Below, piece by piece: positions 467 to 54,490 of a stretch of 64,000 nt of DNA. The stretch lies in NCBI GenBank assembly GCA_965215265.1, contig OZ244048.1, forward strand, positions 2,496,001 to 2,560,000, written 5' to 3'. Source of the stretch: Candidatus Poribacteria bacterium. GTDB lineage: Bacteria; Poribacteria; WGA-4E; WGA-3G. How positions within the stretch are numbered: position 1 is the stretch's first letter; each line of letters starts with the position of its first letter. The notes beneath the pieces were generated by a model that searched no databases, was not told the DNA's origin, and was given only the letters and a program-made list of their open reading frames with translations. Made by a program: the position numbers and the translations under genes.

Positions 467-3400
467 TTATTCTTCCGATTTGAGCGTTGCCCAGCGTTCT
501 GTGAGTTTCCCATCTGCACTCAGATGCCCTTTCAAGCGGGTTGTCTGCAGTGTCTGCTGCACACCTGCGTTGGAGACATCTTCAATGCGGTAGTAATACA
601 CCACATTCGGTTTGGCAGACGTATCCGTCCAACTATAGTCGTTGCGTTCGCCTGTGGTGCCGGCCCCTGCAATCAACTCGGAGTTTATCTTTGTGAAGGT
701 GCCGTTGCGCGCATCGCTCCGCAGCAGGTTGAATCCTGCGTTGTTCAACTCGGATTCGGTTGCCCAACTGATGACGATAGCGCCTTCTACGCGTTTCGCG
801 GTGAAGGCAGAGAGCGCCACGGGCAGCGGGCCGCCGCCCCGATAGCCGGGCGTGCCTTCATCCTCGGCATTGCCGTAGAAGGTGTCGCGCTGCGCCTCGT
901 TCAAAGAGGTGTTGGCGGCTAGCACCCAACCCGCTTCGGTGGTGCCGTCTTCGGCAACTGCGCCGGTGGCGCGGCTAGCGCTGCCGTAGCGGCGGATGAT
1001 GGAGCTGCGCCCGTCTTCAAGCATTGGCAGCTCCCAGGCAGGTTCTTCCCCTCGCCCGACATAGTTGCCAACCGTATCCACCACGGGCTTGACACCAGAG
1101 GCTTCTTTACCATATAACGTCAACTTGAAGGCGGTGGTGGCTAGCACCGGCGAACGCCGTTCCAAGTCCAGTTTATCGCGATAAGCGCTCTCGCGCCGCA
1201 GGTTGATGACACGTGCATCAGGGAAGTGGCCAGAGGTGCGCCCGGTGTCTGTCACGATGAGCAGCGTCTGGTTCGGGGGGATTATCTTACCGCCTACGAA
1301 TTTGAGCGTCACATCTGGGCGAACGGCGGTGTCGGTGGTGGCATCTTGTTGGATGCGGAGCGTCCAGTCGTTCAGATTCACCGCTTCGGTTAGAGAACTA
1401 TTGTGCAGCTCTATCCACTGCGGCAGCCGGTTGTCTGTGTCGAACATAATCTCGCTGATGGAGACTTGGCCCGCGGCGGATTTATCTTTCACTACACCGT
1501 TCTGATACCCGGGGGTACCGCCATACGCGTCTGCGTTCGGGGTATCGCGATCCCAGCCTATGCCGGTGAAACCGCGTTTGCTCCACGCGTTTTCCGCGAA
1601 GTTGTTCTCATTGTCGCGCTGATACACTGACCCTTCCTTGAACGCCTCATCTATATCCTTAAAGATGTCCTTGTCGGGATCCGGTGTCGCCTGCAGTGGC
1701 CAAACCTCCGTATTGTAGTTCTGAGAATCATGCGTCCCTACAAACGGAACGAAAACAGCGCCTGCCGCATCTTCTATGTGAATCGGCTTATTCTTTTGCT
1801 CTTTCTTATTCCGCAGCAGCAACAAGAACTTACCGTCGGCAGGAAGGTTGAGCCCGGATACAACTACGTATTGGTGCAACGCACCATGCTGCACCTCATC
1901 CGCATCGTCCACACCCAGATTGTTCCCACCAGCGAGAAAGTTTCCTTCGGGATTGCTGTTCGCAACGAGTAACACATCCCCGCCGGCAATGCTCTTATCA
2001 GGCAGCGTCACAAGCACCTTCTCGGTGCGCGCAGACGCATCGCCTGTCACAAGCGTGAACTCCCACTCTTTGATACTGACGGCGGCATCCGTGTCGTTTC
2101 GCAGCTCTATCCAATCTAGGCTGTCATCCGTGTGATTCCCTACTTCGTTGATGACAATCTTTCGACCTTCGAAACTCGTCCGGTCTCCGGCGGCGATACG
2201 CTGAGACGGGGTCGAACCAGGGGTGCCGATACGCTGCCCACCGAGGTTTATGCTCGGCGCAGAGGACGCTTGCCAGTTATCGGAACGGTTACCGTCTTCG
2301 ACTTCAGCCTTGGCAAAATCTATGCTCCTATACATCGAAACCAGAGACGCAGACGCGGCTTCATCAGTTGCCACGGTGCGCCCACCTCCACCGGGCACCT
2401 CCCAGTAGCCCAGCCCTAGATTGCTTATGCTATCTATCACCAGATACGGAGTCTCTCCTATTGTCACTTCCGCACGATTCACCAGGTCGCCTGTCGTAAA
2501 ATACAACGCCCAATCGTCCGCTACGGCAGTGGCGGCAACCGCTTTTACTGCATACAGCTCTAGCCACTGGCCAGACGACGACGGCGTTTGACTCGCATCT
2601 TCGCCCCACAACACTTCACTTATGACTACATCACCTTTCACGGCACCGCCGGTGGTTAGCTTCGGCGCTATCAATTCTATCGTCCCACCATTGCGGAAAA
2701 ATTCGCTCAAGTTACGAGTCAGGGTTTCTACAGGTGCAACGGCACTGGAGATACCATGCGTTGTGGATGAGCTTCCCTCTTGGGTCAATACCTCAAAACC
2801 GCCCGCTGCCAACGCTGAAAGCGTGAAGTAGTCCGCTTTCGCGAGCGTTTCCAAGTTGGGGAGGGTTGACAGATGCGAGATATCCGACACGGGCGAATCC
2901 GTAAAACCTACCACTGTCAATTTGGTGAGGGTTGACAGTGCCGAGATATCCGACACTCGCGCATTCCTGATATTCAGCGATATCAAGCTGGTGAGGGTTG
3001 ACAGCGGCGAGATATCCGACACTGGCGTATCACTGAGATCCAGCCCTATCAAGCTGGTGAGGGTTGACAGCGGCGAGATATCCTCTACTTGCGTATCACT
3101 GAGAGACAGCTCTAGCAAGTTGATGAGGCCTGACAGCGGCGAGATATCCTCTACTTGCGTACCCCTGAGATACAGCTCTAGCAAGTTAGTGAGGCCTGAC
3201 AGCGGCGAGATATCCAACACTTGCGTATCCCTGAGATTCAGCTTTACCAATTCGGTGAGGCCTGACAGTGCTGAGATATCCGACACTTGCGTATTCCTGA
3301 GCCACAGCCAATCCAATTTGATGAGGGTTGACAGATGCGAGATATCCGACACTGGCGTATTAGTGAGAAACAGCGTTGTCAAGCTGATGAGGCCTGACAG

Positions 3401-3739
3401 ATGCGAGATATCCTCTACTTGCGTATCACTGAGATACAGCTCTTCCAAGTTAGTGAGGCCTGACAGATGCGAGATATCCTCTACTTGCGTACTGTCGAGA
3501 TCCAGATATTGCAAGTTGGTGAGGGTTGACAGATGCGAGATATCCTCTACTTGCGTACTGTCGAGCTCCAGCTCTTCCAAGTTGGTGGCGTATTCAAGTC
3601 CTGTCAGATTGCTAACGTTTGATTCCCTTAGATCGAGGTATGTCAAGCGGAGCATATCTGCCTGGGTGACATCCGTCCCCGCGGAGATGTAGAGTGTCTC
3701 CTCTATTTCCGCAAGGAGCGCCGCATCCGGAATGTTCAC
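467..3739 (-). CDS. Internalin-like leucine-rich-repeat protein fused to lamin-tail-like domains; secreted/surface protein (true start probably ATG 3906, across a C8 frameshift)
   Basis: N-cap VNIPDAAL, then 22-aa LRRs (LxxLxLxxTQVEDISxLSxL). Three lamin-tail-like segments (VVISEVLW..QWLELY; IVINEVGN..DWIELRN; VSISEIMF..QWIELHN). C-terminal PLPVxLSxF...YYYRIEDV domain and GKLTERWATLK tail. Confidence 0.85.
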   Translation of the reverse strand: MNIPDAALLAEIEETLYISAGTDVTQADMLRLTYLDLRESNVSNLTGLEYATNLEELELDSTQVEDISHLSTLTNLQYLDLDSTQVEDISHLSGLTNLEELYLSDTQVEDISHLSGLISLTTLFLTNTPVSDISHLSTLIKLDWLWLRNTQVSDISALSGLTELVKLNLRDTQVLDISPLSGLTNLLELYLRGTQVEDISPLSGLINLLELSLSDTQVEDISPLSTLTSLIGLDLSDTPVSDISPLSTLTSLISLNIRNARVSDISALSTLTKLTVVGFTDSPVSDISHLSTLPNLETLAKADYFTLSALAAGGFEVLTQEGSSSTTHGISSAVAPVETLTRNLSEFFRNGGTIELIAPKLTTGGAVKGDVVISEVLWGEDASQTPSSSGQWLELYAVKAVAATAVADDWALYFTTGDLVNRAEVTIGETPYLVIDSISNLGLGYWEVPGGGGRTVATDEAASASLVSMYRSIDFAKAEVEDGNRSDNWQASSAPSINLGGQRIGTPGSTPSQRIAAGDRTSFEGRKIVINEVGNHTDDSLDWIELRNDTDAAVSIKEWEFTLVTGDASARTEKVLVTLPDKSIAGGDVLLVANSNPEGNFLAGGNNLGVDDADEVQHGALHQYVVVSGLNLPADGKFLLLLRNKKEQKNKPIHIEDAAGAVFVPFVGTHDSQNYNTEVWPLQATPDPDKDIFKDIDEAFKEGSVYQRDNENNFAENAWSKRGFTGIGWDRDTPNADAYGGTPGYQNGVVKDKSAAGQVSISEIMFDTDNRLPQWIELHNSSLTEAVNLNDWTLRIQQDATTDTAVRPDVTLKFVGGKIIPPNQTLLIVTDTGRTSGHFPDARVINLRRESAYRDKLDLERRSPVLATTAFKLTLYGKEASGVKPVVDTVGNYVGRGEEPAWELPMLEDGRSSIIRRYGSASRATGAVAEDGTTEAGWVLAANTSLNEAQRDTFYGNAEDEGTPGYRGGGPLPVALSAFTAKRVEGAIVISWATESELNNAGFNLLRSDARNGTFTKINSELIAGAGTTGERNDYSWTDTSAKPNVVYYYRIEDVSNAGVQQTLQTTRLKGHLSADGKLTERWATLKSEE
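2850..3590 (-). repeat. About 11 tandem 66-bp repeats encoding the LRR units
   Basis: GAGATATCC recurs every 66 bp (2877, 2943, 3009 ... 3537). Confidence 0.95.
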
Positions 3740-4596: not shown

Positions 4597-7500
4597 ATGC
4601 GAAACTTGAGACTGAACTCCAACAGTAAATCTGTGCGTGACTACTACACGACGCTGGAACGCTACGAACAGAGCCACATCGTTCACGAAGGTGCGGTGAG
4701 TATTCCGCTGGGGACGCTGCTGCAAACGTGTGCGCGACAGGTAGAGGCGGTATTTGTGCCGCAATATGCTATGCGTACGGAACGCGGAAACCGTATCGTG
4801 CTTGACGGTGCGATTCTTGATGAATACGAACTCCCTTTCGCTTATTGTGAAGCGAAAGACATGGCAGATGATCTGGAGCGCGAAATCATACGAAAGATTG
4901 ACGCGGGTTACCCGACATCTAATATCTTCTTCTACACGCCGCAGCGCGGTGTCCTCTATCAGAACGATCAGAGAGTGCTTGACGTAGACATGACGCAGCC
5001 TGACAGGCTCCTTGAGGCAGTGCAGCGTCTGTTTTCAGAGCCGTTTGCCGCGATTGAGAAGTGGCACGCCGCTGTTGCTGCATTCAAAGAGAGGGTCCCT
5101 GCGCTCGGGCGAGAACTCGCTCAACTCATCCGGCAACAGCACCAAACCAATACACGCTTCACCAGCGCTTTTGCTGATTTTTACCGGCAGTGCCGCGCAT
5201 CAATCAATCCGAATCTGTCTAAAGCCGCAGTGGAAGAGATGCTCATCCAACATCTGCTCACAGAACGCATTTTCCGCACCGTCTTTGATAATCCGGATTT
5301 TACACGCAGAAATATCATCGCCCGCGACATTGAAACCGTTATTGATGCACTCACGCACCACGCTTTCAGTCGAGACGGCTTCATGCGGCGTCTTGAGCCG
5401 TTCTATCGTGCGATTGAGCAAGCGGCGACGCTCTGCACGGATTTCTCGCAAAAACAACACTTTTTGAACACGGTTTACGAACAGTTCTTCCAAGGGTTCT
5501 CCATAGAAGTTGCGGATACGCATGGGATTGTCTATACGCCGCAACCGATAGTCGAGTTCATGGTGAAAAGTGTGGAATACCTCTTAGAAACCGAGTTCAA
5601 CCGTTCGCTTTCCGAGCCGGGTGTTCACATCATCGACCTGTTCGTTGGTACCGGTAACTTCATCGTGCGTCTGATGCAAGACATTGAAGGCACAATGTTG
5701 GAGGAGAAATACGGCGGGGAACTCCACTGCAACGAGTTGATGCTGTTGCCGTATTACATCTCCAGTTTGAACATAGAGCATGAATATTTCCGCCGGACGG
5801 GTGAATACCTGCCGTTTGAGGGCATCTGCCTTGTTGATACGTTTGAGTTGCTTGAATCAGAGCAGGCGCAACTCTTCACGCGTGAAAACACGGCCCGCGT
5901 TGAACGTCAGAAAGCGTCGGAGATGTTTGTAGTTCTCGGGAATCCGCCCTACAACGCTGGCCAGGTGAATGAGAACGATAACAACAAAAATCGGCAGTAT
6001 CCAGCGATGGATAAACGCATAGAGGAAACGTACGCGGCGGATTCCATGGCGCAGAACAAGAATAAGTTATATGATCCGTATGTGAAGGCAATTCGATGGG
6101 GGTTGGATAGGATAGGCGATGAAGGTATTGTCGCCTTGATAACGAACAATAGCTTCCTTGATGGCATCTCGTTCGATGGAATGCGGAAACATCTCGCGGC
6201 CGACTGCGATGCACTCTATGTTCTGGACTTGGGGGGCAATGCGAGGCGAGGCTTAAAGTGCTCTGACGCAAATGTCTTCGGAATCCAGGTCGGTGTCAGT
6301 ATCAACCTGTTTGTGAAGAAACAGCAAAAATCACCCGAGCCCTGCCGTATCTATTACCATCGCACTGATGAACTGTGGAATAGACAACGGAAGTTTGATT
6401 TTCTGAATGAACGCCAACATGCTGGGAATGTTGAGTGGCAAGCCATCGCCCCGGATGCCCGATACACTTGGCTCACGGAAGGACTCAACGCAGCGTTTGA
6501 TACCTTTATTCCTATCGGAACGCAGCAAGCAAAGAAAGCAAAAGAGGAGGCTGTGGATGTCATTTTCAAAACCTACAGCCTCGGTATTAGCACGAACCGC
6601 GATGCGTGGAGCCTCAACTTCAACGCCCAAGCGCTCTCTCAAAATATGCAGCGGATGATTGAGAACTACAACACGCAGGTTTTCAAGTGGCAGCATCAGA
6701 GCGCTCGAGGCACCAACGTTGATGATTTTGTGGAGGCTGATGCCACGAAAATTAAGTGGAGTTCCACGTTAAAACGGCATCTGAATAGCGGACATTTCGC
6801 TGAATTTAATGACTCAAAACTGCGGCGATGCCTCTACCGCCCTTTCACGAAGCGGGCGCTCTACTTTGATCGGATGCTGGTAGAGGGACCCCGGCTCTTT
6901 CCTTTCATATTTCCGACTCCTGAGACAGAAAAGGAAAACCAGGTAATTTGTGTAGCGGGTGTTGGAAATAGAAAAGGCTTTGGTTGTCTCGCAACAAATA
7001 TGATTCCTAATTTAGATGTGGCATTTGAAAAAACGCAATGCTTCCCTTTCTATACCTACGCCGAGGACGGCAGCAACCGCCGTGAAAACATCACGGAGTG
7101 GGCATTGGCAGCGTTCAGAACTCACTACGGCGAGGACACCATCAGCAAGTGGGACATCTTTCACTATACCTATGCACTCTTGCATCAGCCCGACTATCGC
7201 GAAACTTATCAGATGAATCTCAGGCGCGATTTACCTCACATCCCATTTGCACCAGATTTCTGGGCGTTCGTGAACATTGGCGCGCGGTTAGCAGAACTTC
7301 ACGTCAACTATGAAACGCAGCCCGAATCTGCAGGCTTGCAGTTTATTGAGACACCTAATGTCCAGCGGGATTGGCGCGTAGAGAAGATGAGATTCTCGAA
7401 AGAGAAGACGCAGCTACACTACAACGACTTCCTGACGATAGCCGGTATTCCGGATGAGGCGTTTGCGTATCGTTTAGGTGCGCGTAGTGCGTTGGAGTGG

Positions 7501-7662
7501 GTAGTGGATGGGTATCGTGTGAAGGTAGACAAACGGAGTGGCATTGTGAACGATCCGAACCGTGCGGATGTGCCGAAATATATTGTAGCATTAATCGGAC
7601 GGGTTGTGTCGGTAAGTTTAGAGACGGTGAAGCTTGTGGGGCAGCTGCCGCCGCTAGCATGA
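4597..7662 (+). CDS. Fused restriction-modification enzyme (type IIG / helicase-less type ISP-like N6-adenine MTase with N-terminal nuclease-like domain)
   Basis: LDG...YCEAKD nuclease-like motif; GIVYTPQPIV; motif I DLFVGTG; motif IV GNPPY; type ISP-like C-terminal specificity region (LYRPF, YRLGARSALEW, SGIVNDPN). Start placed at ATG 4597. Confidence 0.85.
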   Translation: MRNLRLNSNSKSVRDYYTTLERYEQSHIVHEGAVSIPLGTLLQTCARQVEAVFVPQYAMRTERGNRIVLDGAILDEYELPFAYCEAKDMADDLEREIIRKIDAGYPTSNIFFYTPQRGVLYQNDQRVLDVDMTQPDRLLEAVQRLFSEPFAAIEKWHAAVAAFKERVPALGRELAQLIRQQHQTNTRFTSAFADFYRQCRASINPNLSKAAVEEMLIQHLLTERIFRTVFDNPDFTRRNIIARDIETVIDALTHHAFSRDGFMRRLEPFYRAIEQAATLCTDFSQKQHFLNTVYEQFFQGFSIEVADTHGIVYTPQPIVEFMVKSVEYLLETEFNRSLSEPGVHIIDLFVGTGNFIVRLMQDIEGTMLEEKYGGELHCNELMLLPYYISSLNIEHEYFRRTGEYLPFEGICLVDTFELLESEQAQLFTRENTARVERQKASEMFVVLGNPPYNAGQVNENDNNKNRQYPAMDKRIEETYAADSMAQNKNKLYDPYVKAIRWGLDRIGDEGIVALITNNSFLDGISFDGMRKHLAADCDALYVLDLGGNARRGLKCSDANVFGIQVGVSINLFVKKQQKSPEPCRIYYHRTDELWNRQRKFDFLNERQHAGNVEWQAIAPDARYTWLTEGLNAAFDTFIPIGTQQAKKAKEEAVDVIFKTYSLGISTNRDAWSLNFNAQALSQNMQRMIENYNTQVFKWQHQSARGTNVDDFVEADATKIKWSSTLKRHLNSGHFAEFNDSKLRRCLYRPFTKRALYFDRMLVEGPRLFPFIFPTPETEKENQVICVAGVGNRKGFGCLATNMIPNLDVAFEKTQCFPFYTYAEDGSNRRENITEWALAAFRTHYGEDTISKWDIFHYTYALLHQPDYRETYQMNLRRDLPHIPFAPDFWAFVNIGARLAELHVNYETQPESAGLQFIETPNVQRDWRVEKMRFSKEKTQLHYNDFLTIAGIPDEAFAYRLGARSALEWVVDGYRVKVDKRSGIVNDPNRADVPKYIVALIGRVVSVSLETVKLVGQLPPLA

Positions 7663-7759
7663 TAGCGAATTGCGTTCAAGTTTGGAGGCGTAAAAGTAAA
7701 AAGAGCGCTGCACCTGTTGGTTCACGCCAACCTAACTTTATCGCGCCTGGCGACAAAAT

Positions 7760-9136
7760 ATGAAGCAAGCACGTGGAGATTTAACGCGAGGTAATCTTCT
7801 AAAGCACTTGTTAAGGCTTGCCGTTCCGTTAACGTTGAGCAATATTTTACAAGATGCGTTTAACATTGTGGATATGATTTTTGTAGGGAGATTAGGTTCG
7901 GCTTCTATTGCGGCGGTGGGGGTCAGCGGTAATCTGCTTAGACTGATCGGGGTTTTCGCGCTGGGTATATCTACGGGGAGCGGGATTCTGGTGTCGCAAT
8001 ACCTTGGTGCGGGTAATCGGGCTCAGGCGGAGCATGTGGCACTTCAGGCGATTCTGCTATCAATTTTTTGTTCAATATGCGTCACGCTCGTAGGCTATCC
8101 GTTGGCGGAACAAGGGTTGCTGTCGGTGCGCATGACGGACCCGGAGGTGCTTCAGTTCGGTACAACGTACATGCATATCATCCTGATAGGTATCAGCACA
8201 ATGTTTCTGTCAATGACACTGGGTTCTATCTTCCGTGCAGGTGGAGATGCGCTGACGCCGATGGTGGTGTTAATTTTTTCAACGGTGATCAACATTACGT
8301 TGGATCCGCTGTTGATTTTCGGTATCTGGAAATTTCCGAGGCTGGGTGTGGCGGGTTCTGCGTTGGCAACGTTGATCGGCCGTGCGCTGGGTGTGGTTGT
8401 GCTGTTCTACCTGTGCTGGAGTGGCCGTGCGCCGGTTTCGTTTCGAAACGTTCAGTACCGTGCGGATTTGGTAGAAATGCTTGACATTTTACGGTTAGGC
8501 GTTTATAGTTCTATGCAAGGCTTCTGGCGGCATTTATCGCGTCTCGGTTTTCTGTGGGTGATCGGTCCGTATGGTAAGCATGCGGTTGCGGCATATACCA
8601 TCTGCATGCGTCTCCGTATATTGGTAATGAATCCGGGTTTCGGTATCTCGCATGCGGTATCGCCGATAGTCGGGCAGAATTTAGGTGCGAACCAGATAGA
8701 ACGTGCTGAAAAAGCGACGCGGCTTGCCAACGTGCTGGGTGCGACGGTGATGACGCTGATAGGTGTGATGTTTCTCTTTTTTCCGGGCGTGTTTCTTCGG
8801 ATTTTCACGGATGACGTTCAAGCGATAGAGCTCGGTGCGGTTTACCTCCAGTTTTTATCGTTGACGTTCGGGTTTATCGCGTTCTCGTTGGTTTTAGGGC
8901 GTGCGCTCAACGGTGCGGGGGACACATTTTCTCCGATGGTGATTACCTTAGCGTCGCAAATCGGTGTTGGGTTGGGGCTCGTCATCCTATTTTCACGCTT
9001 CATGGCGCTCAACGGTGTTTGGCTCGGTATAGCGCTCTCAAATGTCGTACAAGGCCTCGCCATGTGGTTCTGGTACCGGACTGGGAAATGGAAGACAAAA
9101 AAAGTTGTCAAGGATAGGTCTGTCAAATCGGATTAA
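7760..9136 (+). CDS. MATE family efflux transporter
   Basis: DLTRG..L.RLAVP, D.IFVGRLG, NITLDPLLIFG...LGVAGSALAT, VGQNLGA; ~12 TM segments. Confidence 0.92.
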   Translation: MKQARGDLTRGNLLKHLLRLAVPLTLSNILQDAFNIVDMIFVGRLGSASIAAVGVSGNLLRLIGVFALGISTGSGILVSQYLGAGNRAQAEHVALQAILLSIFCSICVTLVGYPLAEQGLLSVRMTDPEVLQFGTTYMHIILIGISTMFLSMTLGSIFRAGGDALTPMVVLIFSTVINITLDPLLIFGIWKFPRLGVAGSALATLIGRALGVVVLFYLCWSGRAPVSFRNVQYRADLVEMLDILRLGVYSSMQGFWRHLSRLGFLWVIGPYGKHAVAAYTICMRLRILVMNPGFGISHAVSPIVGQNLGANQIERAEKATRLANVLGATVMTLIGVMFLFFPGVFLRIFTDDVQAIELGAVYLQFLSLTFGFIAFSLVLGRALNGAGDTFSPMVITLASQIGVGLGLVILFSRFMALNGVWLGIALSNVVQGLAMWFWYRTGKWKTKKVVKDRSVKSD

Positions 9137-9166
9137 TCGTTCTACAAAGCAAAGGAGAACCCAAAA

Positions 9167-10033
9167 ATGATTGACAAAGGCTATGAAAACCCAGGATTAC
9201 TTATCTCGGCAGAGGAATTGAAAGCCAAGGTTCAAGCAACGCTTGCGTCGGACGCGCCTGATGCCGATGAACCGTTCTGCATTGTGGATGTTCGTCCGAC
9301 GTATGAATATGTGCGTGGGCATATTCCGGGGGCGTTGCATCTGGATCTGTTCGGGCTGAGCCTGATTGATACCCGCAAAGCGACGTTTGATGCGTTTATG
9401 TGGATGATAGGTTACCTCTTTCAACAACGGGGTATTGACCCGGATAAAACGATCATCTGGTATGAGGATATTTCAGGTACGCGTGCTTCCCGTGGGTTTT
9501 GGTTTTGTGAGTACTTTGGGCATGCGAAGACGCGTCTATTAGATGGTGGTTACAAAGCCTGGTTAGCGGCAGAGGGTCCTGTCAGTACGGCGGGTGTTGA
9601 ACCGCCCGAGGTGCCGCCGTTTCCGATTAACCCGCGACACGAGACGCACATGGATGCAGATGTCATCCGTGTTCTGTTAAATCGTGAGGATTTTGTGCCG
9701 CTGGATACGCGGACAGCCGATGAACACTACGGTAGAGTGGCCCGTGCGGCACGCGCAGGCGCGATTCCGGGTTCCATCCATATTGAATGGCTCGATAACC
9801 TTGACGAGACGGGTGCTTTTAAACCTGCTCAGGAACTGCGAGAGATGTACGAAGCCGTCGGTATTACGTCAGACAAACAGGTTATGTGCTACTGACAGGG
9901 TGGGTACCGCTCTTCCCAGAGTTATTTAGCGCTGCGGCTTTTGGGTTATAAAGCCAGCAACTATATCGGCTCATGGAAAGAGTGGGGTGACCGGCTGGAT
10001 TTGCCGGTTGAAGTGCCTGAGGCATCTGCCTAA
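9167..10033 (+). CDS. Tandem-domain rhodanese/sulfurtransferase, probable selenoprotein (UGA 9893-9895 = Sec)
   Basis: GHIPGA, LDGG, GAIPGS motifs. The frame continues past TGA as [36 protein letters not shown] to TAA 10031-10033, completing the rhodanese active loop and signature. Confidence 0.85.
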
Positions 10034-10135
10034 ATTGCAGATGGAATTTGCAGGAAAAGATCCGGGGCTGGGATGTCTGTTATGGAAGCGTAGTTGAACA
10101 GTATGATGTATTTGTATAAGTAAGAAGCGAGAGTA

Positions 10136-10185
10136 CATAACCCCTTTCTCTCTTTTCTCCCTGGATGTGTGAGAAAGGGGTTATG
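10136..10185. terminator. Inverted repeat between the convergent rhodanese and moeA genes
   Basis: 15-bp perfect stem CATAACCCCTTTCTC / GAGAAAGGGGTTATG. Confidence 0.65.
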
Positions 10186-10212
10186 CTCATCCGTGGTTAA
10201 TTTGAGGTGCGC

Positions 10213-11412
10213 CTAAAAGAACTGTGCATCTACAATTTCGCCTGCCTGCATTCTGGCGCCGGCTGGAATGGTAATTAGCCCGTTGGCCAAGACGAGCGAA
10301 TGAAGGATGCCGGAGCCTTGGGGTCCGGTTGTTTTCGCTGTGTAGTTCCCCCCATGTTCTGTTAGAATGGCGCGCATATAGTTGACTCTTCCATCTCTGT
10401 TTACGATATTTTCTGCGAGGGCGGCTTTGAAGGTTGGCCGTAACAGTTGGGAGTGTCCGGCCATTTTGAGGAGTGCTGGACGCACGAACAGTTCGAAGAC
10501 CACGAGGGAAGAGACTGGATTGCCGGGCAATCCAAAGATCGGTTTTCCGTCAGCAATCCCGTAAGCTTGCGGTTTTCCGGGTTTCATAGCGACACGCCAA
10601 AAGTTAATCTTTCCCAATTTCTCCAACACATTTTTAACGATATCGTGCTCGCCGACTGAAACCCCGCCGCTGGTGATGAGTGCGTCGGCTTGCGCCAGGG
10701 CAGCCCGAAATGTCTGTTCTGTTTCTGCTTCGTCGTCACGGGCAATCCCGATATCTATCGGAATAGCCCCTGCTTCCTTGACTTGTGCATAAATTCCGTA
10801 GCGGTTGCTATCTCGGATTTTTCCGGGGGTGAGTTGCTCGCCGAGGGGTGTCAACTCGTCGCCGGTCGAAACGATTGCGACGGTAGGTTTTCGATGTACC
10901 GTTACCTTATTGCAATTGAGGGAGGCGAGCATAGAGATTTCTGGTGGGCGGAGCTGCTTTCCGGGTGCCATGACGCGTTCGCCTCGCTTCACGCTCTCTC
11001 CGGTGAATCGGACGTTTCGGTTTTCGTCAACATCCTCAAAAATGTTGACGGTATCGTTTTGTTGTTGTGTTACCTCTTGCATGACGACGGCATCAGCGCC
11101 GTGTGGCATCATTGCGCCTGTCATAATCCGTGCTGCTTGACCTGGCTGGACAGGTTTGGTGGGTGCATATCCGGCTGCGATTGTCTCCACGATGGTGAGT
11201 ATAACAGGATTATCTTTCGACGCGCCCTGCACATCTGAGGCATGGACAGCGTAGCCGTCCATCGCCGAATTGTCAAACGGCGGTATATCTTCAGCGGCAT
11301 AGAGTGCTTCGGCGAGGACATATCCAAAGCAGTTGAGGATATTGCGTTTTTCTGTTGATAAAACAGGAATGGTGTCTAGCATCTGTTGACGTGCGGCTTC
11401 AACACTTAGCAT
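10213..11412 (-). CDS. moeA: Molybdopterin molybdotransferase MoeA
   Basis: PPFDNSAMDGYA, IMTGA, STGDEL, ITSGGVSVG, MKPGKP, LPGNPVS. Start placed at MLSVEAA. Confidence 0.95.
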   Translation of the reverse strand: MLSVEAARQQMLDTIPVLSTEKRNILNCFGYVLAEALYAAEDIPPFDNSAMDGYAVHASDVQGASKDNPVILTIVETIAAGYAPTKPVQPGQAARIMTGAMMPHGADAVVMQEVTQQQNDTVNIFEDVDENRNVRFTGESVKRGERVMAPGKQLRPPEISMLASLNCNKVTVHRKPTVAIVSTGDELTPLGEQLTPGKIRDSNRYGIYAQVKEAGAIPIDIGIARDDEAETEQTFRAALAQADALITSGGVSVGEHDIVKNVLEKLGKINFWRVAMKPGKPQAYGIADGKPIFGLPGNPVSSLVVFELFVRPALLKMAGHSQLLRPTFKAALAENIVNRDGRVNYMRAILTEHGGNYTAKTTGPQGSGILHSLVLANGLITIPAGARMQAGEIVDAQFF

Positions 11413-35586: not shown

Positions 35587-36174
35587 TCAATTCTCGGAGT
35601 CGGGGCGGTCTATATGGCCGTTTACATGATATGTCTCGTAAACGTCAAAAACGGCTTTGCAAAAGGCTATCATCTTCTGGTCTGAGTGTTCTAAGGCAGT
35701 TTCGTACATTTTGATAAAATACCTTTTACCGGCTTCAGTCTGTGAGTAATTGCGTTTGAGTAGATTGTGTTCGTAACAGAGTGTCTGGCCGTTGGCAATG
35801 GTATTTGTGCCGCCCTTATCTTTGGGCTTAACATGGTCAGCGGCAAGCGTAACGCCATCTTCACGGCTGCGTCCACAGACAACACACCGATGGCCATCAC
35901 GTTCAAAAATAGCCGCTCTCGTCTGAGCCGAAAATTCGAACAATTCAACTTCGTGTTCATGGTGTGGGTCATATTTATAGATACCCTTGTCTACTTTGAT
36001 GAGTTTTCCTTCTTGATGTAGTTTCCTAATGGTTCGCCATGGGTCTCTGGGTACTCTCCCATGTGCTGCTTGATATTGTTCTGTTACCCAATCTACGACT
36101 GGATCGTGTGGCAATTCTTGGTTTGGGTGGTTCATAAAGTACTCCATAACAAGTTCACGAATCGTCTGTGCCAT
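35587..36174 (-). CDS. HNH endonuclease (putative restriction enzyme)
   Basis: RDGHRCVVCG, ADHVKPKDKGG, NGQTLCYEHN; start overlaps the MTase 3' end. Confidence 0.85.
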   Translation of the reverse strand: MAQTIRELVMEYFMNHPNQELPHDPVVDWVTEQYQAAHGRVPRDPWRTIRKLHQEGKLIKVDKGIYKYDPHHEHEVELFEFSAQTRAAIFERDGHRCVVCGRSREDGVTLAADHVKPKDKGGTNTIANGQTLCYEHNLLKRNYSQTEAGKRYFIKMYETALEHSDQKMIAFCKAVFDVYETYHVNGHIDRPDSEN

Positions 36175-36958
36175 GTCTCTCCTCGGTATTTTCAAAGAGT
36201 TGCAATTGATTTGTAGCGTGCTGGATGCGTTCTTTTGCGAGTTTGCAGTAGCCTTCGTCCACCTCGATTCCAATGCTTTGCCGGTTGTTTAAACGTGCGG
36301 CAATTAAGGTGGTGCCGCTCCCCATAAACGGGTCGAGGACGGTGTCCTGAACGTAACTAAAGAGTTTGATACAGCGCTGTGGGAGTTCGATAGGAAAAGG
36401 CGCGGGGTGCCCAATCCGCTTCTTGCTTTCACCGGGGAAGGTCCAGAGCCCATTTGTCCACTCCATAAACTCTTGTTTATTCATATCGGATTTGCCGCTC
36501 CCGCTTGTTTTCTTCCATTGTTGCTTATAGAGGACGACAATCAATTCAACCGGGGCGATGACGTAGGGTGCAGATGCCTTTAACCAAGAGCCCCAGGCGG
36601 TTCTTCTAGAGATGTTGCCTTCGTTCCAAACGATGGTGGCGTGGTATTGAAACCCGACAGTGGTTGCTAGCTTTGTCAGATCTGCGCCGACGTGTTGCTG
36701 TCCGCCCTTGTTTTTGTCCAAGGGGATATTGAGACAGAAACGCCCATCGGGCTTTAGCCACTGTAGAGAGCGAGCGAACCACGCTTCCGAAAAGGCGAGA
36801 TAATCGGCATAAGAGAGTGCATCGTCATTTGAATCGTATTTAATGTCTACATTATAGGGTGGCGAAGTGACGATGAGATCTATACTCTCTTTCTCAATGG
36901 CGTGCGTTGTCAATACATTATCATTGATAATCTCAAAGGGTTTGTTAGTAGAAAACAC
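36155..36958 (-). CDS. Beta-class N4/N6 DNA methyltransferase
   Basis: TSPPY, HPAPFP, VLDPFMGSGTT. Confidence 0.93.
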   Translation of the reverse strand: MFSTNKPFEIINDNVLTTHAIEKESIDLIVTSPPYNVDIKYDSNDDALSYADYLAFSEAWFARSLQWLKPDGRFCLNIPLDKNKGGQQHVGADLTKLATTVGFQYHATIVWNEGNISRRTAWGSWLKASAPYVIAPVELIVVLYKQQWKKTSGSGKSDMNKQEFMEWTNGLWTFPGESKKRIGHPAPFPIELPQRCIKLFSYVQDTVLDPFMGSGTTLIAARLNNRQSIGIEVDEGYCKLAKERIQHATNQLQLFENTEERHGTDDS

Positions 36959-49193: not shown

Positions 49194-51158
49194 CTACAAA
49201 AACGGATTATCTGCATCGTAATAATATGATGGCTGTTCGAGTGACACTTGGCTGTCCTTAGTTAAACGGATGGGCGCGGCGAATTGCTCAATAACGTCTT
49301 TCTGTGCGAGCCATTCACACGCCATTTCAAACAGTAAGTTGCGCTGCCCGAAATGGTCATAAAGATCGGTTATCGTGCGCTCTTCTCTGGCAGTCTGCAG
49401 GAAATCGAGCAACGGTTTGAAAAGAGTGTGCACGTTGTCTGCTAAGTAGGCATCTACCTGCTCAAGCACGTGCTGGAGGGTGTCCTGATCTTTAGGTATG
49501 TGAAGCATCTGTGTAAAAACGGTGTTGAAGAACGCGGGGTTATGTTTGATGGCTTGATAGATAACCTTGCGTTTGGGTGTTTCGCCGTGCATCAGGCATT
49601 CAATAGCTGCCAATTGTCTAATAACAAAGATTAAGTATAAAAATGTATAGTTAAGATCGCGTTTGAGGTAAAACCATTTTTCCGCTTTGGCGAGTACGGC
49701 GGTGGCATCTGCTGCATTGTTGAGGAGCTGAGCGTGTTTATCGCGTTCACCAAGTTGGTTGTCCGTGATGTGCTGGAGCCAGTCTGCGAGTCCGGGTTCT
49801 TTGGAAAAGAGGATTTCACTTTGGGCAAGCATCGCATGGAGTGTGCTCCCTTGTAAGGTTTTTTCGAGCAGCTGCCGATATGCGCTGCGGGTGTGCAGTT
49901 TAACCCGAATAGGTACGTTTTCTTCGATTAATTGATGTTCTGCTTGCTTAAATTTAGTCCCGTCTCTCAGAATCAGTGTGATAAAGGGTGTTGTCTTTTC
50001 CCAGACGTTGTTTTCAGCGAGGTTACTGGTAAGAACCGCCGCGAGAACGTACCGGTCTTGCTTGAGCGTCTGGATAAGTCTGTCGAGTGCGTCGTGAATC
50101 TGCTGTTTTTTGTCTGCGTGGGCGATAATGTGATTTTTGGTTGAGATGTGTTGTGGGTATCTCGTCGGAGTCTCTTTGGGCGGTGAAGAGGCGGCTGCGT
50201 CTGTTTGGCCAGGGTCATCTTCGTGCTCATTATTCTCATCGTAATAGTAGGCGGGTTCCTCGACAGAGCCCTGGCTTTTGCGTGTAAGTTTCATGGGCAC
50301 GGCGACTTGCTGGATGCGCCCTTTCCACGCGAGCCATTGGCATACTAGAGACAACGATTCTTCATCAAAGTTTGCACGGAAATAAGCGTTCAATTCCGTA
50401 TTGGAGCGCGGTGTCTTCTGCTCAGTGAGATAATCGAGAATCGGTTTGAAGATGAACTGGCGTTCGTCAAGGTAGGCGTTAATTGCATCCAGTGCGTGTT
50501 GAATGACCGTCTCGTTTTTCTGACAGTTTATCAATTCAGTATAGACGTGATTGAAGAAGTCGGGGTTGTAGTGCAGCGCGGGTTGAATCACCTCACGTGC
50601 GGGTACTTCATCGTTTAGGAGTACCTCTATTCGTGCGAGGCCCTGTACTACATTCAGCAGCGTAAGGAAACAGGTAATTATATCGTTATTTACGTAAAAC
50701 TGTTTTTCGGCATAGATAAGATTTGGCAAGATGCTGGCGGCGACGTTAAGCAGTTGGACTTGTCTGTCACGTTCACCGATGTTATGGCGGTTGGCGTTTT
50801 TATCGTACCATTGCTTGATGGAGTCGTCCCGTGAGAAGAGGAGTGTGCTGTGGGAGAAATAGGAGTGGGTGATAGAGCCTTGTTGCGCACGTTCTATTGT
50901 CTTTTTGAAGTGGCTGCGCGGTGTCAAAGAGGCGTGAATGTTGATGCCGTTTTCCACCAGTATGTAGAAGGATTGGTTTGGGCGGATGTCGTCCCTACCG
51001 ATGAGCTCGACATCTAGGTCCGATTTCTGCCAGACTTGTGCGTATGAGAAACTGCCTGCGACGATCGCGGCAAGGATATAAGGATCTTGCTTAACCTTTT
51101 CAACGAGCGAATCGACGGCTTCGCGGTACTGTTGTTCAATCGCGTCTTGGGATTTCAT
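49194..51158 (-). CDS. Tandem-duplicated nucleotidyltransferase-like protein (intact plus degenerate copy)
   Basis: N-half AGS..(x9)..SDLD; C-half homologous but without GS/DxD; both halves end in V..E.P.YYYD. Confidence 0.75.
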   Translation of the reverse strand: MKSQDAIEQQYREAVDSLVEKVKQDPYILAAIVAGSFSYAQVWQKSDLDVELIGRDDIRPNQSFYILVENGINIHASLTPRSHFKKTIERAQQGSITHSYFSHSTLLFSRDDSIKQWYDKNANRHNIGERDRQVQLLNVAASILPNLIYAEKQFYVNNDIITCFLTLLNVVQGLARIEVLLNDEVPAREVIQPALHYNPDFFNHVYTELINCQKNETVIQHALDAINAYLDERQFIFKPILDYLTEQKTPRSNTELNAYFRANFDEESLSLVCQWLAWKGRIQQVAVPMKLTRKSQGSVEEPAYYYDENNEHEDDPGQTDAAASSPPKETPTRYPQHISTKNHIIAHADKKQQIHDALDRLIQTLKQDRYVLAAVLTSNLAENNVWEKTTPFITLILRDGTKFKQAEHQLIEENVPIRVKLHTRSAYRQLLEKTLQGSTLHAMLAQSEILFSKEPGLADWLQHITDNQLGERDKHAQLLNNAADATAVLAKAEKWFYLKRDLNYTFLYLIFVIRQLAAIECLMHGETPKRKVIYQAIKHNPAFFNTVFTQMLHIPKDQDTLQHVLEQVDAYLADNVHTLFKPLLDFLQTAREERTITDLYDHFGQRNLLFEMACEWLAQKDVIEQFAAPIRLTKDSQVSLEQPSYYYDADNPFL

Positions 51159-51409
51159 CAGGATTTCTCCGATTGCGGGTGCATTTATAATCTTAATTAT
51201 ACCCTTTATATGTTAAGAATGCAAGGAAAAAAAATAGCAAACGTTGATTTTTTTTTGCATCTGCGTGCCTCCAATTCGTATTTTTTTACCCAAAAATGTG
51301 GCGAAATTCTGATTTTTCGTCAAAGAAGTCTGTTTTTATCTAGCGTGCCCGATTTTGTTGCAAATTCACTGAGATTGAAAAACGGAGTTGACTGGTTTCA
51401 AACGCTGAC

Positions 51410-51562
51410 GGCACCGTGCTGCTCTGGGACCTCTGCCCCTAGCCCGATGCCCTCGGCACCGCAGCCCGCTTTTTTGCGTTATAGTTTTACCCTCTGCTTG
51501 TGGGCGTTAGCCGGGTTCGTCTTTCACAGAGGCTAGGCGCTGCCACCCAACAAAAGCCAAAA
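51410..51562 (+). repeat. ~150-bp direct repeat copy 1 (WD40 gene 3' end plus downstream region)
   Basis: Near-identical to 53317-53468; begins GGCACCGTGCTGCTCTGGGAC = GTVLLWD. Confidence 0.93.
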
Positions 51563-51704
51563 ACTCATTTACCCCTATTTTTTTTGAAGGTTTGTGGTGA
51601 AAGGTTTTTGTTTAGAGCAGTGTGAGAAAAGCAGTGGGTTAGAGATACCCGAAATGGGTAAATCCAACATCTCTGATAACCCGTTTTCAAGACATCTTCA
51701 AGGC

Positions 51705-51744
51705 TTCTGGTATCTCCGTCCCTAGCCCGATGCCACCGGCACCG
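51705..51744 (+). repeat. Partial third copy of the WD40-end repeat
   Basis: TTCTGGTATCTCCGTCCCTAGCCCGATGCCACCGGCACCG. Confidence 0.7.
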
Positions 51745-51805
51745 AAGACAGCAGCCCTCTGTTTGCAGGGAGACATGAGGTTACCATCAAAAATCTAAAA
51801 AAAGA

Positions 51806-51834
51806 GTGACTTTTTTCAAAATCTGTGGTATACT
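51806..51834 (+). promoter_or_regulatory. Promoter of the collapsed WD40 gene (also antisense to the Rpn gene)
   Basis: GTGACT-17 bp-TATACT with extended -10 TG. Confidence 0.55.
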
Positions 51835-51895
51835 TCTTCAGTGAGCCAAGTGGCAAACTCCAAAAATGCAGCTTGCGGCAGGCAGGTAAAAAACG

Positions 51896-51973
51896 ATGAA
51901 AAAGAATTTCACTACCATTCGGCTCTGGGATGTCAACACAGGCGAACCCCTCAAAACTCTCATGTCTCTCTAA
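51896..51973 (+). pseudogene. Collapsed WD40 gene, 5' remnant
   Basis: MKKNFTTIRLWDVNTGEPLKTLMSL*; TIRLWDVNTG..LKTL is a canonical WD40 segment. Confidence 0.75.
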
Positions 51974-53079
51974 GTGTGCAGCGCTTGCAGGAACGCTTCA
52001 AAACTGGGTGTCTCAACGGCGATGAGATGTAGCTGCTTGAGCCGCGCCAGGTCTGGTATGGCTTCAAGGTGCGGTTGAGTCGTCTGCACGTCGCTCTGCG
52101 GGAACCGTGCGGTGAGCACCGCGATGACGTTTTCTATCGCCGTCCGGCGTGCGCCTTGTTCAATGCCTTGTTCAATGCCTTGTTCAATGCCTTGTTTGAG
52201 TCCTTGTTGCACGAGGACTTCTGCCATGGTTTCTGCCATCTGTTTTACCTCCATCTTATCTTCTGCGAGTTGTTCCACTAATGCGACTAAGCCACTTTGT
52301 TCTGATAGCGGCCGACGATGCAAGATGAGTAGCAAGAAATAGACTATCGCCTCACGCCGCTGTTCGGCACCAACCGTATCAAACTCATCAAGGTGCGCTA
52401 TCGCCGTGCGTAACGCATCGCGTATCTCCGCCTCGTCTGCTCTCTCTTTTTGCAGCACCGTCAAAAGCCACCCGAACGGATGATGCGTTTGAGTGAGCGT
52501 GGCGACATCGGTTTGCTTCACGCTCAGAAACAACGTCTCAAAAGCCGGAACGAACCGGGCGAGTTCAGCAGGGATGTCCATCAGCGCCTCAAGTGTCAGC
52601 GGGGTTTTCCACTGCTGCTCGCCGGTATAAAACACAACCGGCAGTATCGGGGGCAACCGTCGTGCCTGTTTGGGCACCTTGTCGTGTTCCCATTGCCTGC
52701 GATGTGCGTCCCAAATCAGCATCATATAAAACAGCACCCGAAACCCCATCGTCGCATCCACCGTCGATTGATGTTCGACGAGCAGATAGATAAGCAGCGC
52801 CTCCGTGGCTGTCTCGGTTCTAAACGGGACGCGAAACACGCTATCCGCTTCCTGCTCCCGCAGCACTTCTGGCAGCAGGCTTCTCGGGAGTGGAACGAGT
52901 TGGCTAAAATCTATGCGTTCTGCGATGTCAGCGGCGACGATTTCTAGCACACCCCGGACGTTTTCGCCGTTTTGTAGCAAGCGCCGCACACTTCTGTCGG
53001 CGAAGTGTTCAACGCGTCCATCAAGCAGCGCGCGGATATGCTGCATCTGCGTGTCCACGTCTTTGGTTTCTTGCGTCAT
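51970..53079 (-). CDS. Rpn family recombination-promoting nuclease/putative transposase (YhgA-like)
   Basis: D...R.LL, EADSVF, YLLVEHQS, LPPILPVVFYTG; GIEQ repeats before the C-terminal domain. Confidence 0.9.
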   Translation of the reverse strand: MTQETKDVDTQMQHIRALLDGRVEHFADRSVRRLLQNGENVRGVLEIVAADIAERIDFSQLVPLPRSLLPEVLREQEADSVFRVPFRTETATEALLIYLLVEHQSTVDATMGFRVLFYMMLIWDAHRRQWEHDKVPKQARRLPPILPVVFYTGEQQWKTPLTLEALMDIPAELARFVPAFETLFLSVKQTDVATLTQTHHPFGWLLTVLQKERADEAEIRDALRTAIAHLDEFDTVGAEQRREAIVYFLLLILHRRPLSEQSGLVALVEQLAEDKMEVKQMAETMAEVLVQQGLKQGIEQGIEQGIEQGARRTAIENVIAVLTARFPQSDVQTTQPHLEAIPDLARLKQLHLIAVETPSFEAFLQALHT

Positions 53080-53215
53080 TTATCTCCTCTATGCCGGGTG
53101 CCTGCCATTCGGGCAGCCCGCCGGTGAAAAGCGGTGAAGATTTTACTCAAATTATACCACTTTTGGCAGTAAAGATGCCACCCTTTTTTTTAGGCGGATT
53201 TCGTTTTTCGCTTCT

Positions 53216-53349
53216 GGCACCGGAGAATCGCTTAAGCGGCTCACTGCGTATAAGTATAATGTCCATAACTTGTGTTCAGCACAGATGGCAGCACGCTCGC
53301 GAGTGGAAGTTCGGATGGCACCGTGCTGCTCTGGGACCGCCGCCCCTAG
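53216..53349 (+). pseudogene. WD40 gene 3' remnant with a frameshift
   Basis: GTGESLKRLTAYKYNVHN(L), 1-nt shift, VFSTDGSTLASGSSDGTVLLWDRRP*. Confidence 0.85.
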
Positions 53350-53468
53350 CCCGAGGCCCTCGGCACCGCAGCCCGCTTTTTTGCGTTATAGTTTTACCCT
53401 TGCTTCCGGGCGTTAGCGGGGTGCGTCTTTCACAGAGGCTAGGCGCTGCCACCTAACAACAGACAAAA
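53317..53468 (+). repeat. ~150-bp direct repeat copy 2
   Basis: Matches 51410-51562. Confidence 0.93.
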
Positions 53469-53474
53469 AAAACA

Positions 53475-53504
53475 TTGACATTCTCCCCTCATTTGTGCTA
53501 CAAT
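53475..53504 (+). promoter_or_regulatory. Sigma70 promoter of the Rpn2-DUF1156 unit
   Basis: TTGACA-18 bp-TACAAT with extended -10 TG. Confidence 0.7.
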
Positions 53505-53551
53505 GATATAGAAAGACGACGCAACCAAAGGCGAGGCACCCTCACAACATC

Positions 53552-54490
53552 ATGGCAGAACCCGATATCACCTCTAAATATATGGCACGCGAACATCTCA
53601 ACGCACTCCTAAAGTTGTTCGGCATTCCGAACGCGGTTGTATTGGAGCATGTGGACAGCGTGCAAGCGAGAGTCAAAGAATATCAAGGCGACAGCAGCGC
53701 GAAAGTGAAAATAGATGGCAAAGAGATAATACTTCATATAGAAGTCCAAACCACAGATAGCCGTCAACCGATGTGGGCGCGGGTGGCGAACTACTGTGGA
53801 CACCTGATGCTGGTGCACCAGCTGCCCGTTTACTGTGTCGTGTTATACCTGCGTCCGAATGCCGGGCGGCGCGACAGGGGCACCTTTGGATATGACGCGA
53901 CAGATTTCAAATATCTGCTGCAATATAAAGTGGTTCGTCTGGCAGAAGTGGACGGTGCATCGATATTAGCATCGGGTGAGCCGGGTTTGCTGCCGTATAC
54001 GCCGTTGATGAAAGCGCCCGTGGATATGGCGGGTGATGCGTGGTTACGGCGGTGTGCCGAGAAGGCAGAGGCGACATTAGAGAACAATCCTGAGCGTGCG
54101 AATCTTCTGACAGCCTTTGCGGTTTTCGCCGAGCTGCTGCATAGCAAGAGCACGATAGCATCCCTAATTACGGAGGTCATCATGCAAGAGTCAACACTCT
54201 TACAACCTTACTTCGAAAAAGAACGTGAGGCAGGACGAAAACAAGGTTTAGAACAAGGTATAGAACGAGGCATGGAACGAGGCATAGAACGAGGCATAGA
54301 ACAAGGTGCGAAAGAGAGCACCATCAAAAATACATTGGCGGTGCTGAGCGCTAAGTTTTCACCGGATACTGTCAAGGCGTTAGCACCGGCGTTGCAACGC
54401 ATTACCGATTTACAACGCCTTGAGCTGCTGCTGCTCGCCGCCGTTCAGGCGGAGAGTCTTGATAGTTTCGCACGAAGCCTAAACCGATAG
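53552..54490 (+). CDS. Rpn-like PD-(D/E)xK nuclease family protein
   Basis: DITSK, GDS, LHIEVQT, PMWAR..Y, PVYCVVLYL; GIER repeats and a C-terminal domain homologous to Rpn1. Confidence 0.85.
   Translation: MAEPDITSKYMAREHLNALLKLFGIPNAVVLEHVDSVQARVKEYQGDSSAKVKIDGKEIILHIEVQTTDSRQPMWARVANYCGHLMLVHQLPVYCVVLYLRPNAGRRDRGTFGYDATDFKYLLQYKVVRLAEVDGASILASGEPGLLPYTPLMKAPVDMAGDAWLRRCAEKAEATLENNPERANLLTAFAVFAELLHSKSTIASLITEVIMQESTLLQPYFEKEREAGRKQGLEQGIERGMERGIERGIEQGAKESTIKNTLAVLSAKFSPDTVKALAPALQRITDLQRLELLLLAAVQAESLDSFARSLNR

Follow-up and report, generated by a model that had tools for sequence, protein, structure and literature searches.

In a 64,000-nucleotide stretch of a Candidatus Poribacteria bacterium genome (contig OZ244048.1, positions 2,496,001 to 2,560,000; hereafter the window), we analysed a minus-strand gene for a predicted Rpn/YhgA-type nuclease (rpn) that lies among pieces of a WD40-repeat gene and is bracketed by two direct copies of that gene's 3′ end. 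We read the locus as a defence-type islet in which a WD40 gene received rpn in its 3′ part, had its end duplicated and then decayed, a history that in our judgement has a little more for it than against it. The locus is an example of known rpn behaviour and not a new route of repeat-protein remodelling. For comparison, genome contigs were scanned with the Rpn protein of the window; 62 stretches matched and 34 of these encode a relative, all in Poribacteria metagenome-assembled genomes (MAGs). The best identity in this set is 65%, and the window's own genome and the 96–98% and 79% identical relatives are evidently outside the collection.

The anatomy of the locus was established from a listing of open reading frames (ORFs) and a direct reading of positions 51000–54000 (Table 1). 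A hidden Markov model (HMM) of the WD40 blade, derived from 38 blades that belong to the WD40 genes of related loci, was applied with a cut-off of 12 bits. The window contained exactly three matches at or above this cut-off, all within the studied locus, and a reversed-DNA control of the whole 739 kb gave 0 matches at 12 bits or more. The cluster of WD40 gene ends that an earlier, sequence-only reading of this DNA had described is therefore genuine: there are three 5′-truncated 3′ ends, and every blade match in the window falls here. The rightmost fragment opens with TGESLKRLTAYKYNVHN, undergoes a 1-nt frame change near 53266–53272 and then continues as LVFSTDGSTLASGSSDGTVLLWDRRP to the stop codon at 53349; the frameshifted end proposed previously is thus present, beginning at 53219. 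Its stop codon comes after RRP and not straight after WD, and the parent WD40 gene terminated directly behind its last blade (WDRRP-stop). None of these pieces can be a functional WD40 gene, since their lengths are 9–44 codons, one carries a frameshift and all lack a native start; neither the ORFs nor the blade HMM revealed an intact WD40 gene in the 64-kb window. What remains here is non-functional debris from one or more WD40 genes formerly at this site, namely the three truncated 3′ ends and one internal blade piece.

The 5′-truncated pieces at 51404, 51706 and 51911 start near one blade position, just before the h-h-L-W-D strand. This common start may be no more than the point at which homology becomes strong enough to detect. 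Used as a protein query for further copies of this DNA among predicted ORFs, the 121-aa open frame at 53091–53453 had words in common with 18 candidates, of which none reached E ≤ 0.01. A STAND/NACHT-type defence gene was considered as the WD40 parent and is unsupported, the N-terminus of the parent being lost. For seven WD40 proteins of related loci, the top 25 families each contained only WD40/beta-propeller domains, plus a leucine-rich repeat in one.

The truncated ends are carried within a 157-bp direct repeat made up of ∼29 coding bases and 128 bp downstream of the WD40 end. Copies A and B start 1,907 bp apart, and a third, partial copy (C) matches copy A with 81% identity over 47 nt, or 83% over 42 nt, in two comparisons. 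A 25-nt pattern from the repeat core occurred three times in the window compared with 0 in 100 shuffles, and a 28-nt stretch occurred twice compared with 0 in shuffles. These results agree with the sequence-only reading, which had reported a direct repeat of the WD40 3′ end and its downstream flank at 51410 and a partial copy at 51705. Beyond ∼51580, homology between copies A and B was not significant (101/300 shuffles scored equally well), and we rejected a 5′ remnant of an rpn-like gene behind copy A, as the alignment beyond the repeat was matched by these 101/300 shuffles. We also rejected the repeat as a widespread element or RNA: Rfam gave no match within 50–55 kb at E ≤ 1, folding z-scores over both strands ranged from −0.58 to +0.49, and a DNA search found no copy of the non-coding part among the 34 related rpn loci; the earlier reading had proposed a search of related MAGs for the repeat.

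Between the copies, the rpn module, i.e. the gene with about 110 bp upstream and without terminal repeats, lies exactly between two blade fragments that are in register. The left fragment is 8 bp from the rpn stop codon and the right fragment 139 bp from the rpn start codon, and together they share exactly one TGExLKxL linker, the left ending in TGEPLKTL and the right beginning with TGESLKRL. The left fragment is embedded in a 25-codon micro-ORF, which the sequence-only reading had presented together with a preceding promoter. Both sequences are present, and an ATG-initiated frame ∼60 bp downstream of a promoter-like site (51806–51834) could be taken for a WD40 blade exapted as a functional small gene or regulator. 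We consider this extremely improbable. The promoter match is no better than shuffle expectation, six such 9/12 sites occurring in 3.6 kb compared with 2.8 ± 1.8 in shuffles; the DNA of 51600–51975 gave nothing but short matches to WD40 coding DNA in the 34 loci; the region has no Rfam match within 50–55 kb; and the frame finishes by running into the rpn stop codon. The micro-ORF is accordingly read here as debris rather than as a gene.

The rpn gene itself is intact, and its identification in the sequence-only reading was confirmed by a match to PF04754 (Transposase_31/YhgA-like; E 2.1e-26, 93.2 bits against a cut-off of 21) over residues 28–230. In an alignment of seven sequences, D28, D79, E102, Q104 and R114 were invariant; by motif and spacing alone they correspond to D11, D63, E82, Q84 and R94 of RpnA, the residues mutated in work described in parts of PMC5350276. 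According to main-text passages of the 2023 family study (PMC10400941), RpnL/RpnS systems consist of a toxic nuclease and an antitoxin, the latter being the nuclease's own C-terminal domain produced in addition from an internal start, with four-residue repeats that begin 8–20 residues after the internal start and vary between strains. In agreement, the window gene has a candidate internal start (ATG at 52239) that lies 11 codons ahead of a four-residue repeat tract. The arrangement ATGGAGGT..ATG, 11 codons ahead of the repeats, was present in 12/12 sequences with at least two repeats, these being the window and the 11 of 34 loci in which a regular expression detected two or more repeats; it gave no match in the remaining 23.

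Among 8000 candidates scored, the Rpn protein had 849 relatives at E ≤ 0.001, and the source names listed were all Candidatus Poribacteria. The closest of the matches listed, P0001, is full-length and 96% identical by BLASTP (98% in the alignment); it differs from the window protein by few substitutions and has one QGIE unit fewer (three repeats compared with four). Other relatives carry 1–4 repeat units. We best file the gene as a divergent new member of the RpnL/RpnS defence family, predicted to encode a non-specific PD-(D/E)XK nuclease toxin with an internal antitoxin, and its present role is most likely phage defence. Among the papers that a literature search joining Poribacteria and rpn terms listed, none dealt with rpn genes of sponge symbionts. 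In 3/34 loci the rpn homologue (around 10001–11060) is broken: those of L008 and L027 contain in-frame stops and that of L031 a frameshift. Across the rpn gene and its flanks, L008 matches L031 with 92% identity.

DNA homology between rpn paralogues covers the gene and at most ∼70 bp upstream, ending at the stop codon, and the shared upstream region contains a promoter-like site found by scanning (53169–53140 on the minus strand, 9/12). Because paralogue homology is confined to the gene and a short upstream part, the rpn module is without defined ends, as published. No inverted repeats flanking the rpn gene were found, nor was there a short target-site duplication, so that the gene does not qualify as an insertion sequence or transposon. 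In the main-text passages of PMC10400941, rpn genes likewise lack inverted repeats and target-site duplications, have variable ends and form arrays via tandem direct duplication; they are described as enriched near defence genes and as a toxin–antitoxin antiphage system that is not autonomously mobile.

In the history that we prefer, illegitimate or short-homology recombination, and not transposition, would first have brought the rpn module into the WD40 gene, within its 3′ part, and would have duplicated the 3′ end of the target. The WD40 gene would thereby have been inactivated, and later deletions among the repetitive blades and flanks would have removed most of it. Copy C, being more diverged, may stem from an older round of the same process. 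We prefer this history because of a parallel in one comparison locus, L003, and because of the primer–template-switch model for RpnA, whose cleavage products can prime template switching according to parts of PMC5350276. The rpn nuclease itself may have catalysed these steps or have taken no part in them.

L003 has an intact gene for an 895-aa WD40 protein (6962–9649) and, behind it, an rpn module of about 1.35 kb. A 209-bp segment that takes in the final 100 bp of the WD40 gene together with the terminator hairpin and flank (9549–9757) is duplicated, with 91% identity, at 11110–11318, and this second copy begins 38 bp past the rpn stop codon. Copies A and B of the window have the same geometry. 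Duplications touch rpn genes elsewhere too. In L002 (7943–11817), rpn lies between copies 2 and 3 of a tandemly tripled 215–223-aa gene (87–93% identical), the bracketing copies 2 and 3 being 92% identical and copies 1 and 2 87%; the tripled gene has a signal-like N-terminus and a CHACH motif. In L005, rpn lies between 1.9-kb paralogues that are 71% identical. The 3′ part of rpn, corresponding to the antitoxin module, is tandemly duplicated with 78–92% identity in L015 (10673–11493), L018 (10767–11312), L023 (10569–12255) and L026 (10722–11238). Finally, the minus strand of L001 (13516–15384) has an rpn-like gene with six RGLE repeats and then three tandem ORFs of ∼130 aa, which are stand-alone RpnS-type C-terminal modules with 1–2 repeats each and duplicated DNA 95% identical.

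WD40 genes were present in 9/34 loci, in 10 clusters, and 25 loci were without any. Three clusters lay within 1 kb of the anchor rpn gene: one is 355 bp away on the same strand in L003, one 294 bp away and divergent in L009, and one 619 bp away in L027. The rpn genes of these loci sit in different clades of the rpn tree, and the adjacencies are therefore probably independent. When each WD40 cluster was re-placed randomly within its own locus, 1.2 clusters were expected within 1 kb, and 11% of 20,000 permutations reached the observed 3/10 (P about 0.11). Proximity of rpn and WD40 genes above chance is suggestive at most, and the proposal that Rpn genes are enriched next to WD40 genes was not borne out across the 34 loci. 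Isolated single-blade WD40 remnants were seen in 0/34 loci at 10 bits or more. Between L003 and L009, whose WD40 genes are orthologous, DNA homology stops at the WD40 stop codon; by eye, the N-terminus of their 870–895-aa WD40 proteins (PF00400 E about 1e-137) is signal-like and the C-terminus is of the sorting type. Short WD40 genes that end after the last blade (LLWE-stop) were noticed in L013 (14654–18862) and, similarly placed, in L017 and L024, where they lie between tandem paralogous segments 3.5–5.5 kb downstream of rpn.

The lack of proximity above chance and the absence of WD40 debris from the other rpn loci both fit an alternative in which rpn was a passive passenger: the WD40 gene would have decayed by ordinary recombination among its blades and 3′ ends, and rpn would have landed in, or come with, dead DNA, its nuclease uninvolved. 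WD40 blades are indeed repetitive at the DNA level, with self-matches of 64–84% within the L003 and L009 WD40 genes. Furthermore, segmental direct duplications are common around many kinds of gene, as a control identified 58 direct-repeat pairs (at least 100 bp, 0.9–4 kb spacing) in 739 kb, most of them bracketing other genes. Speaking against a mere passenger are the position of the rpn module exactly at an in-register blade junction, the precise bracketing of the L003 rpn module by a duplicated WD40 3′ end, and the several rpn genes touched by duplications. We regard the passenger explanation as possible though somewhat doubtful, and nearly as good as insertion followed by decay.

The repeats that bracket the 1.9-kb unit from A to B, with their 92% identity and 1,907 bp from start to start, could also mark an active cassette. 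In its circular form this would contain rpn and one WD40 3′ end; a single crossover would insert it into any WD40 gene end that has the same flank, and recombination of A with B would excise it. The same geometry in L003 would fit, as would P0001, the 98% identical relative, for whose cluster the listed contig is as long as the window's own contig. The 8% divergence between the repeats nevertheless speaks against a recent crossover, and copy A is preceded by the promoter region of the neighbouring gene and not by the body of a WD40 gene. With neither an integrase nor a tRNA nearby, and the non-coding part of the repeat in none of the 34 loci, we consider a cassette improbable. Still less credible is an assembly artefact, i.e. 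a mis-join or a collapsed duplication, since repeats of only 157 bp that differ by 8% ought to pose no difficulty in assembly. In addition, the contig listed for the window's own protein is 4.83 Mb long, and an independent genome (L003) has the same architecture.

Several observations weigh against insertion with duplication of the target end, or against the family assignment of the gene. The sequence-only reading had placed rpn between the two halves of one WD40 gene, and rpn does abut in-register fragments. However, the linker overlap is identical at only 15/24 nt, compared with 92% for repeat copies A and B; the fragments therefore represent two different blades and not a fresh target-site duplication. 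None of the 34 rpn loci holds the uvrA or nucleotidyltransferase-like neighbour and so none is an orthologous locus, and for this reason the order of events (insertion or decay first) is only inferred. Of these 34 other loci, only L003 repeats the exact duplicated-3′-end architecture, and its rpn gene is on the same strand as the WD40 gene, whereas the window rpn is opposite to the WD40 pieces. Among the direct-repeat pairs, six reach at least 85% identity; three bracket an anchor rpn gene (window, L002, L003) and three bracket other genes (L001, L004, L015). The anchor rpn gene is ∼1 gene in 18, so 3/6 is an excess, but one of tiny numbers and with a window chosen for the feature. In L004 (12524–14239), direct repeats of 133–164 bp, 95–98% identical, bracket an enolase-superfamily gene, and the bracket architecture is therefore not confined to rpn genes. 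As for the protein, its TIGR01784 score of 40.2 bits is under the cut-off of 52.1, its sequence matched solved structures at chance level only, and PADLOC (2023), which is without an Rpn model, gave only a weak match to the C-terminal module. By TIGR01784 it is a divergent member, with close homologues nonetheless named 'Rpn family' by NCBI. With WD40 remnants at 0/34 other loci, brackets around non-rpn genes and no target duplication, the suggestion that the locus records an Rpn-linked route of repeat-protein turnover is not supported.

The rpn gene lies in a GC-richer islet that also contains the WD40 debris and ends with an orphan DNA methylase gene. The guanine-plus-cytosine (GC) fraction is 0.52–0.60 over 52.2–57.2 kb (0.55–0.60 in the methylase stretch) compared with 0.46–0.50 in the flanks. 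Core genes lie on both sides, pcrA, uvrA and the nucleotidyltransferase-like gene to the left and argF and thrC to the right, and no tRNA gene was found in 45–60 kb. We read 51.4–57.3 kb as a small variable islet, of defence type judging by its gene content, between core genes of a sponge-associated Poribacteria chromosome. A second, divergent rpn-like gene follows the WD40 debris. Its last 79 aa are 44% identical to the C-terminal module of Rpn, and hhalign gave 99.2% probability for this module only; the protein had no Pfam match even at E ≤ 10, and two full-length homologues, 37–38% identical, carry the NCBI name 'Rpn family'. An hhhE-x-Q-like motif (HIEVQT) was seen by eye. The HmaB-type methylase has the rpn-like gene and argF as neighbours, with no HmaA or HmaC beside it (the remainder of the window was scanned with NCBIfam, not PADLOC), and is an orphan or the remnant of an Hma defence system.

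The databases hold further traces of this islet. P0121 is the window's own rpn-like protein, listed on a 4,833,177-bp contig, and the single-member cluster P0122 is listed likewise. P0122 consists of the first 241 residues of the rpn-like protein (238/241 identical) joined to the last 76 residues of the methylase (72/76 identical); the join falls within the four-residue repeat tract, with ATGG common to both partners at the junction. Very probably, to judge from these protein records, the same chromosome holds a second, slightly diverged islet copy with a 2.8-kb deletion, and P0001 may be the rpn product of that copy. The P0122 fusion suggests that the islet is unstable. Together with the GC-richer islet and a 12-nt repeat number that differs from that of the 98% identical relative, it makes the rearrangement hotspot proposed in the sequence-only reading a reasonable description.

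Three further features of the window were noted. The left neighbour of the islet (49194–51158, minus strand, 654 aa) has two tandem homologous halves by eye; its N-terminal half gave a weak nucleotidyltransferase (Polbeta) match, under the cut-off, and the protein has no NCBIfam match. At 467–3739 the window encodes a 1090-aa leucine-rich-repeat (internalin-like) protein, another eukaryote-like repeat gene, and at 35587–36958 there is an overlapping pair of an HNH/IscB-like fragment and an adenine methyltransferase.

Table 1. Features of the rpn locus and adjoining islet, in window coordinates
Feature	Position	Strand	Remarks
WD40 3′ end remnant A (ADGTVLLWDLCP, stop)	51404..51435	+	5′-truncated, without start codon; from translation; WD-blade HMM 12.6 bits at 51404–51430
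Direct repeat copy A	51407..51563	+	last ∼10 WD40 codons, stop, 128 bp of 3′ flank (hairpin and T-run)
Partial third copy C of WD40 end and start of flank (..GFWYLRP, stop)	51706..51752	+	more diverged; match to 25-nt core pattern
Promoter-like match GTGACT-17-TATACT	51806..51834	+	9/12 consensus
Micro-ORF MKKNFTTIRLWDVNTGEPLKTLMSL, stop; 25-codon ATG frame	51896..51973	+	residues 6–22 are an internal WD40 blade and linker piece
Left blade fragment TTIRLWDVNTGEPLKTL inside micro-ORF	51911–51961	+	WD-blade HMM 13.1 bits at 51908–51934
Intact rpn gene (RpnL, 369 aa)	51970..53079	−	PF04754
Candidate internal RpnS antitoxin ORF, 89 aa, MAETMAEVL...	51970..52239	−	ATG at 52239, GGAGG 7 nt before
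Four-residue repeat tract QGLK-QGIE-QGIE-QGIE	52159..52206	−	tandem 12-nt repeat
rpn upstream region common to paralogues	53134..53189	−	75–80% matches upstream of L008 and L001 rpn genes
Right WD40 fragment, ∼44 codons	53219..53349	+	linker and last blade, original stop; WD-blade HMM 46.5 bits at 53269–53337
Direct repeat copy B	53314..53469	+	92.4% identical to copy A over 157 bp
Sigma-70-type promoter TTGACA-18-TACAAT with TG	53475..53504	+	11/12, strong; for next gene
Second, divergent rpn-like gene, 312 aa	53552..54490	+	five four-residue repeats, RpnS-type C-terminal module
Orphan HmaB-type (DUF1156) DNA methylase, 924 aa	54530..57304	+	PADLOC HmaB E 1.4e-259; PF06634; end of islet

On how rpn genes move, the main-text passages of the 2023 family study (PMC10400941) report no ends and no target duplications and suggest recombination or hitch-hiking. 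The window and L003, as two independent loci in which rpn is bracketed by the duplicated 3′ end of a neighbour, provide a concrete, if weak, lead. More generally, rpn modules might reach new sites through nuclease-primed template switching or short homology, with duplication of 150–600 bp of the target's 3′ end and an orphan 3′ fragment stranded beyond rpn, the arrangement of the window and L003. In Poribacteria, which have many rpn paralogues, this would recurrently inactivate and turn over neighbouring genes, WD40 genes among them. We think this generalisation unlikely; if it were true, target-3′-end duplication would be the missing footprint of rpn mobility. For the biology of sponge symbionts, the WD40 'graveyard' resembles ordinary, collateral decay within a defence islet and not a mechanism dedicated to the diversification of eukaryote-like proteins.

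Orphan 3′ modules displaced downstream are familiar from Rhs and CdiA toxin genes. The window resembles these in its array of 5′-truncated 3′ gene ends, each with its own flank and in one orientation. In contrast to Rhs and CdiA, the WD40 ends are without variable toxin–immunity cargo, span 5–44 codons, look like decay and have no conserved core gene upstream. Poribacteria have abundant eukaryote-like WD40 proteins, many with a C-terminal Por-secretion sorting domain, as described in parts of PMC3909097. The window remnants match the blades of these proteins; the differences are that the window has no intact gene and that the parent ended after its last blade, like the short WD40 proteins of L013 and L024.

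Closer likenesses are found among rpn genes themselves. As with the tandem direct duplications around rpn described in passages of PMC10400941, duplications touch rpn in the window and in L002, L003, L015, L018, L023 and L026, and the three tandem RpnS-type ORFs of L001 resemble the stand-alone downstream RpnS copies (rpnSs/DUF4351) of the same passages. The window and L003 differ in duplicating the 3′ end and terminator of a neighbour, not rpn, which leaves an orphan 3′ fragment beyond rpn. Such a neighbour-3′-end bracket was not found described in the main-text passages of PMC10400941, and the supplementary figures of that study (S1B, duplication types) may describe it. Compared with the Rpn/YhgA-like recombination-promoting nucleases in parts of PMC5350276, the window protein has the conserved D, D, E-x-Q and R positions, and its sequence is too distant for NCBIfam cut-offs or a sequence match in PDB. 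It differs from the RpnL/RpnS members of E. coli (RpnA–E) and plasmids (RpnP2) covered by the PMC10400941 passages in its Poribacteria host with a large paralogue family. In agreement with those members, the window gene has PF04754, an internal Shine–Dalgarno sequence and ATG before the repeats, a repeat number that varies between close relatives, neither inverted repeats nor a target-site duplication, and an adjoining defence gene.

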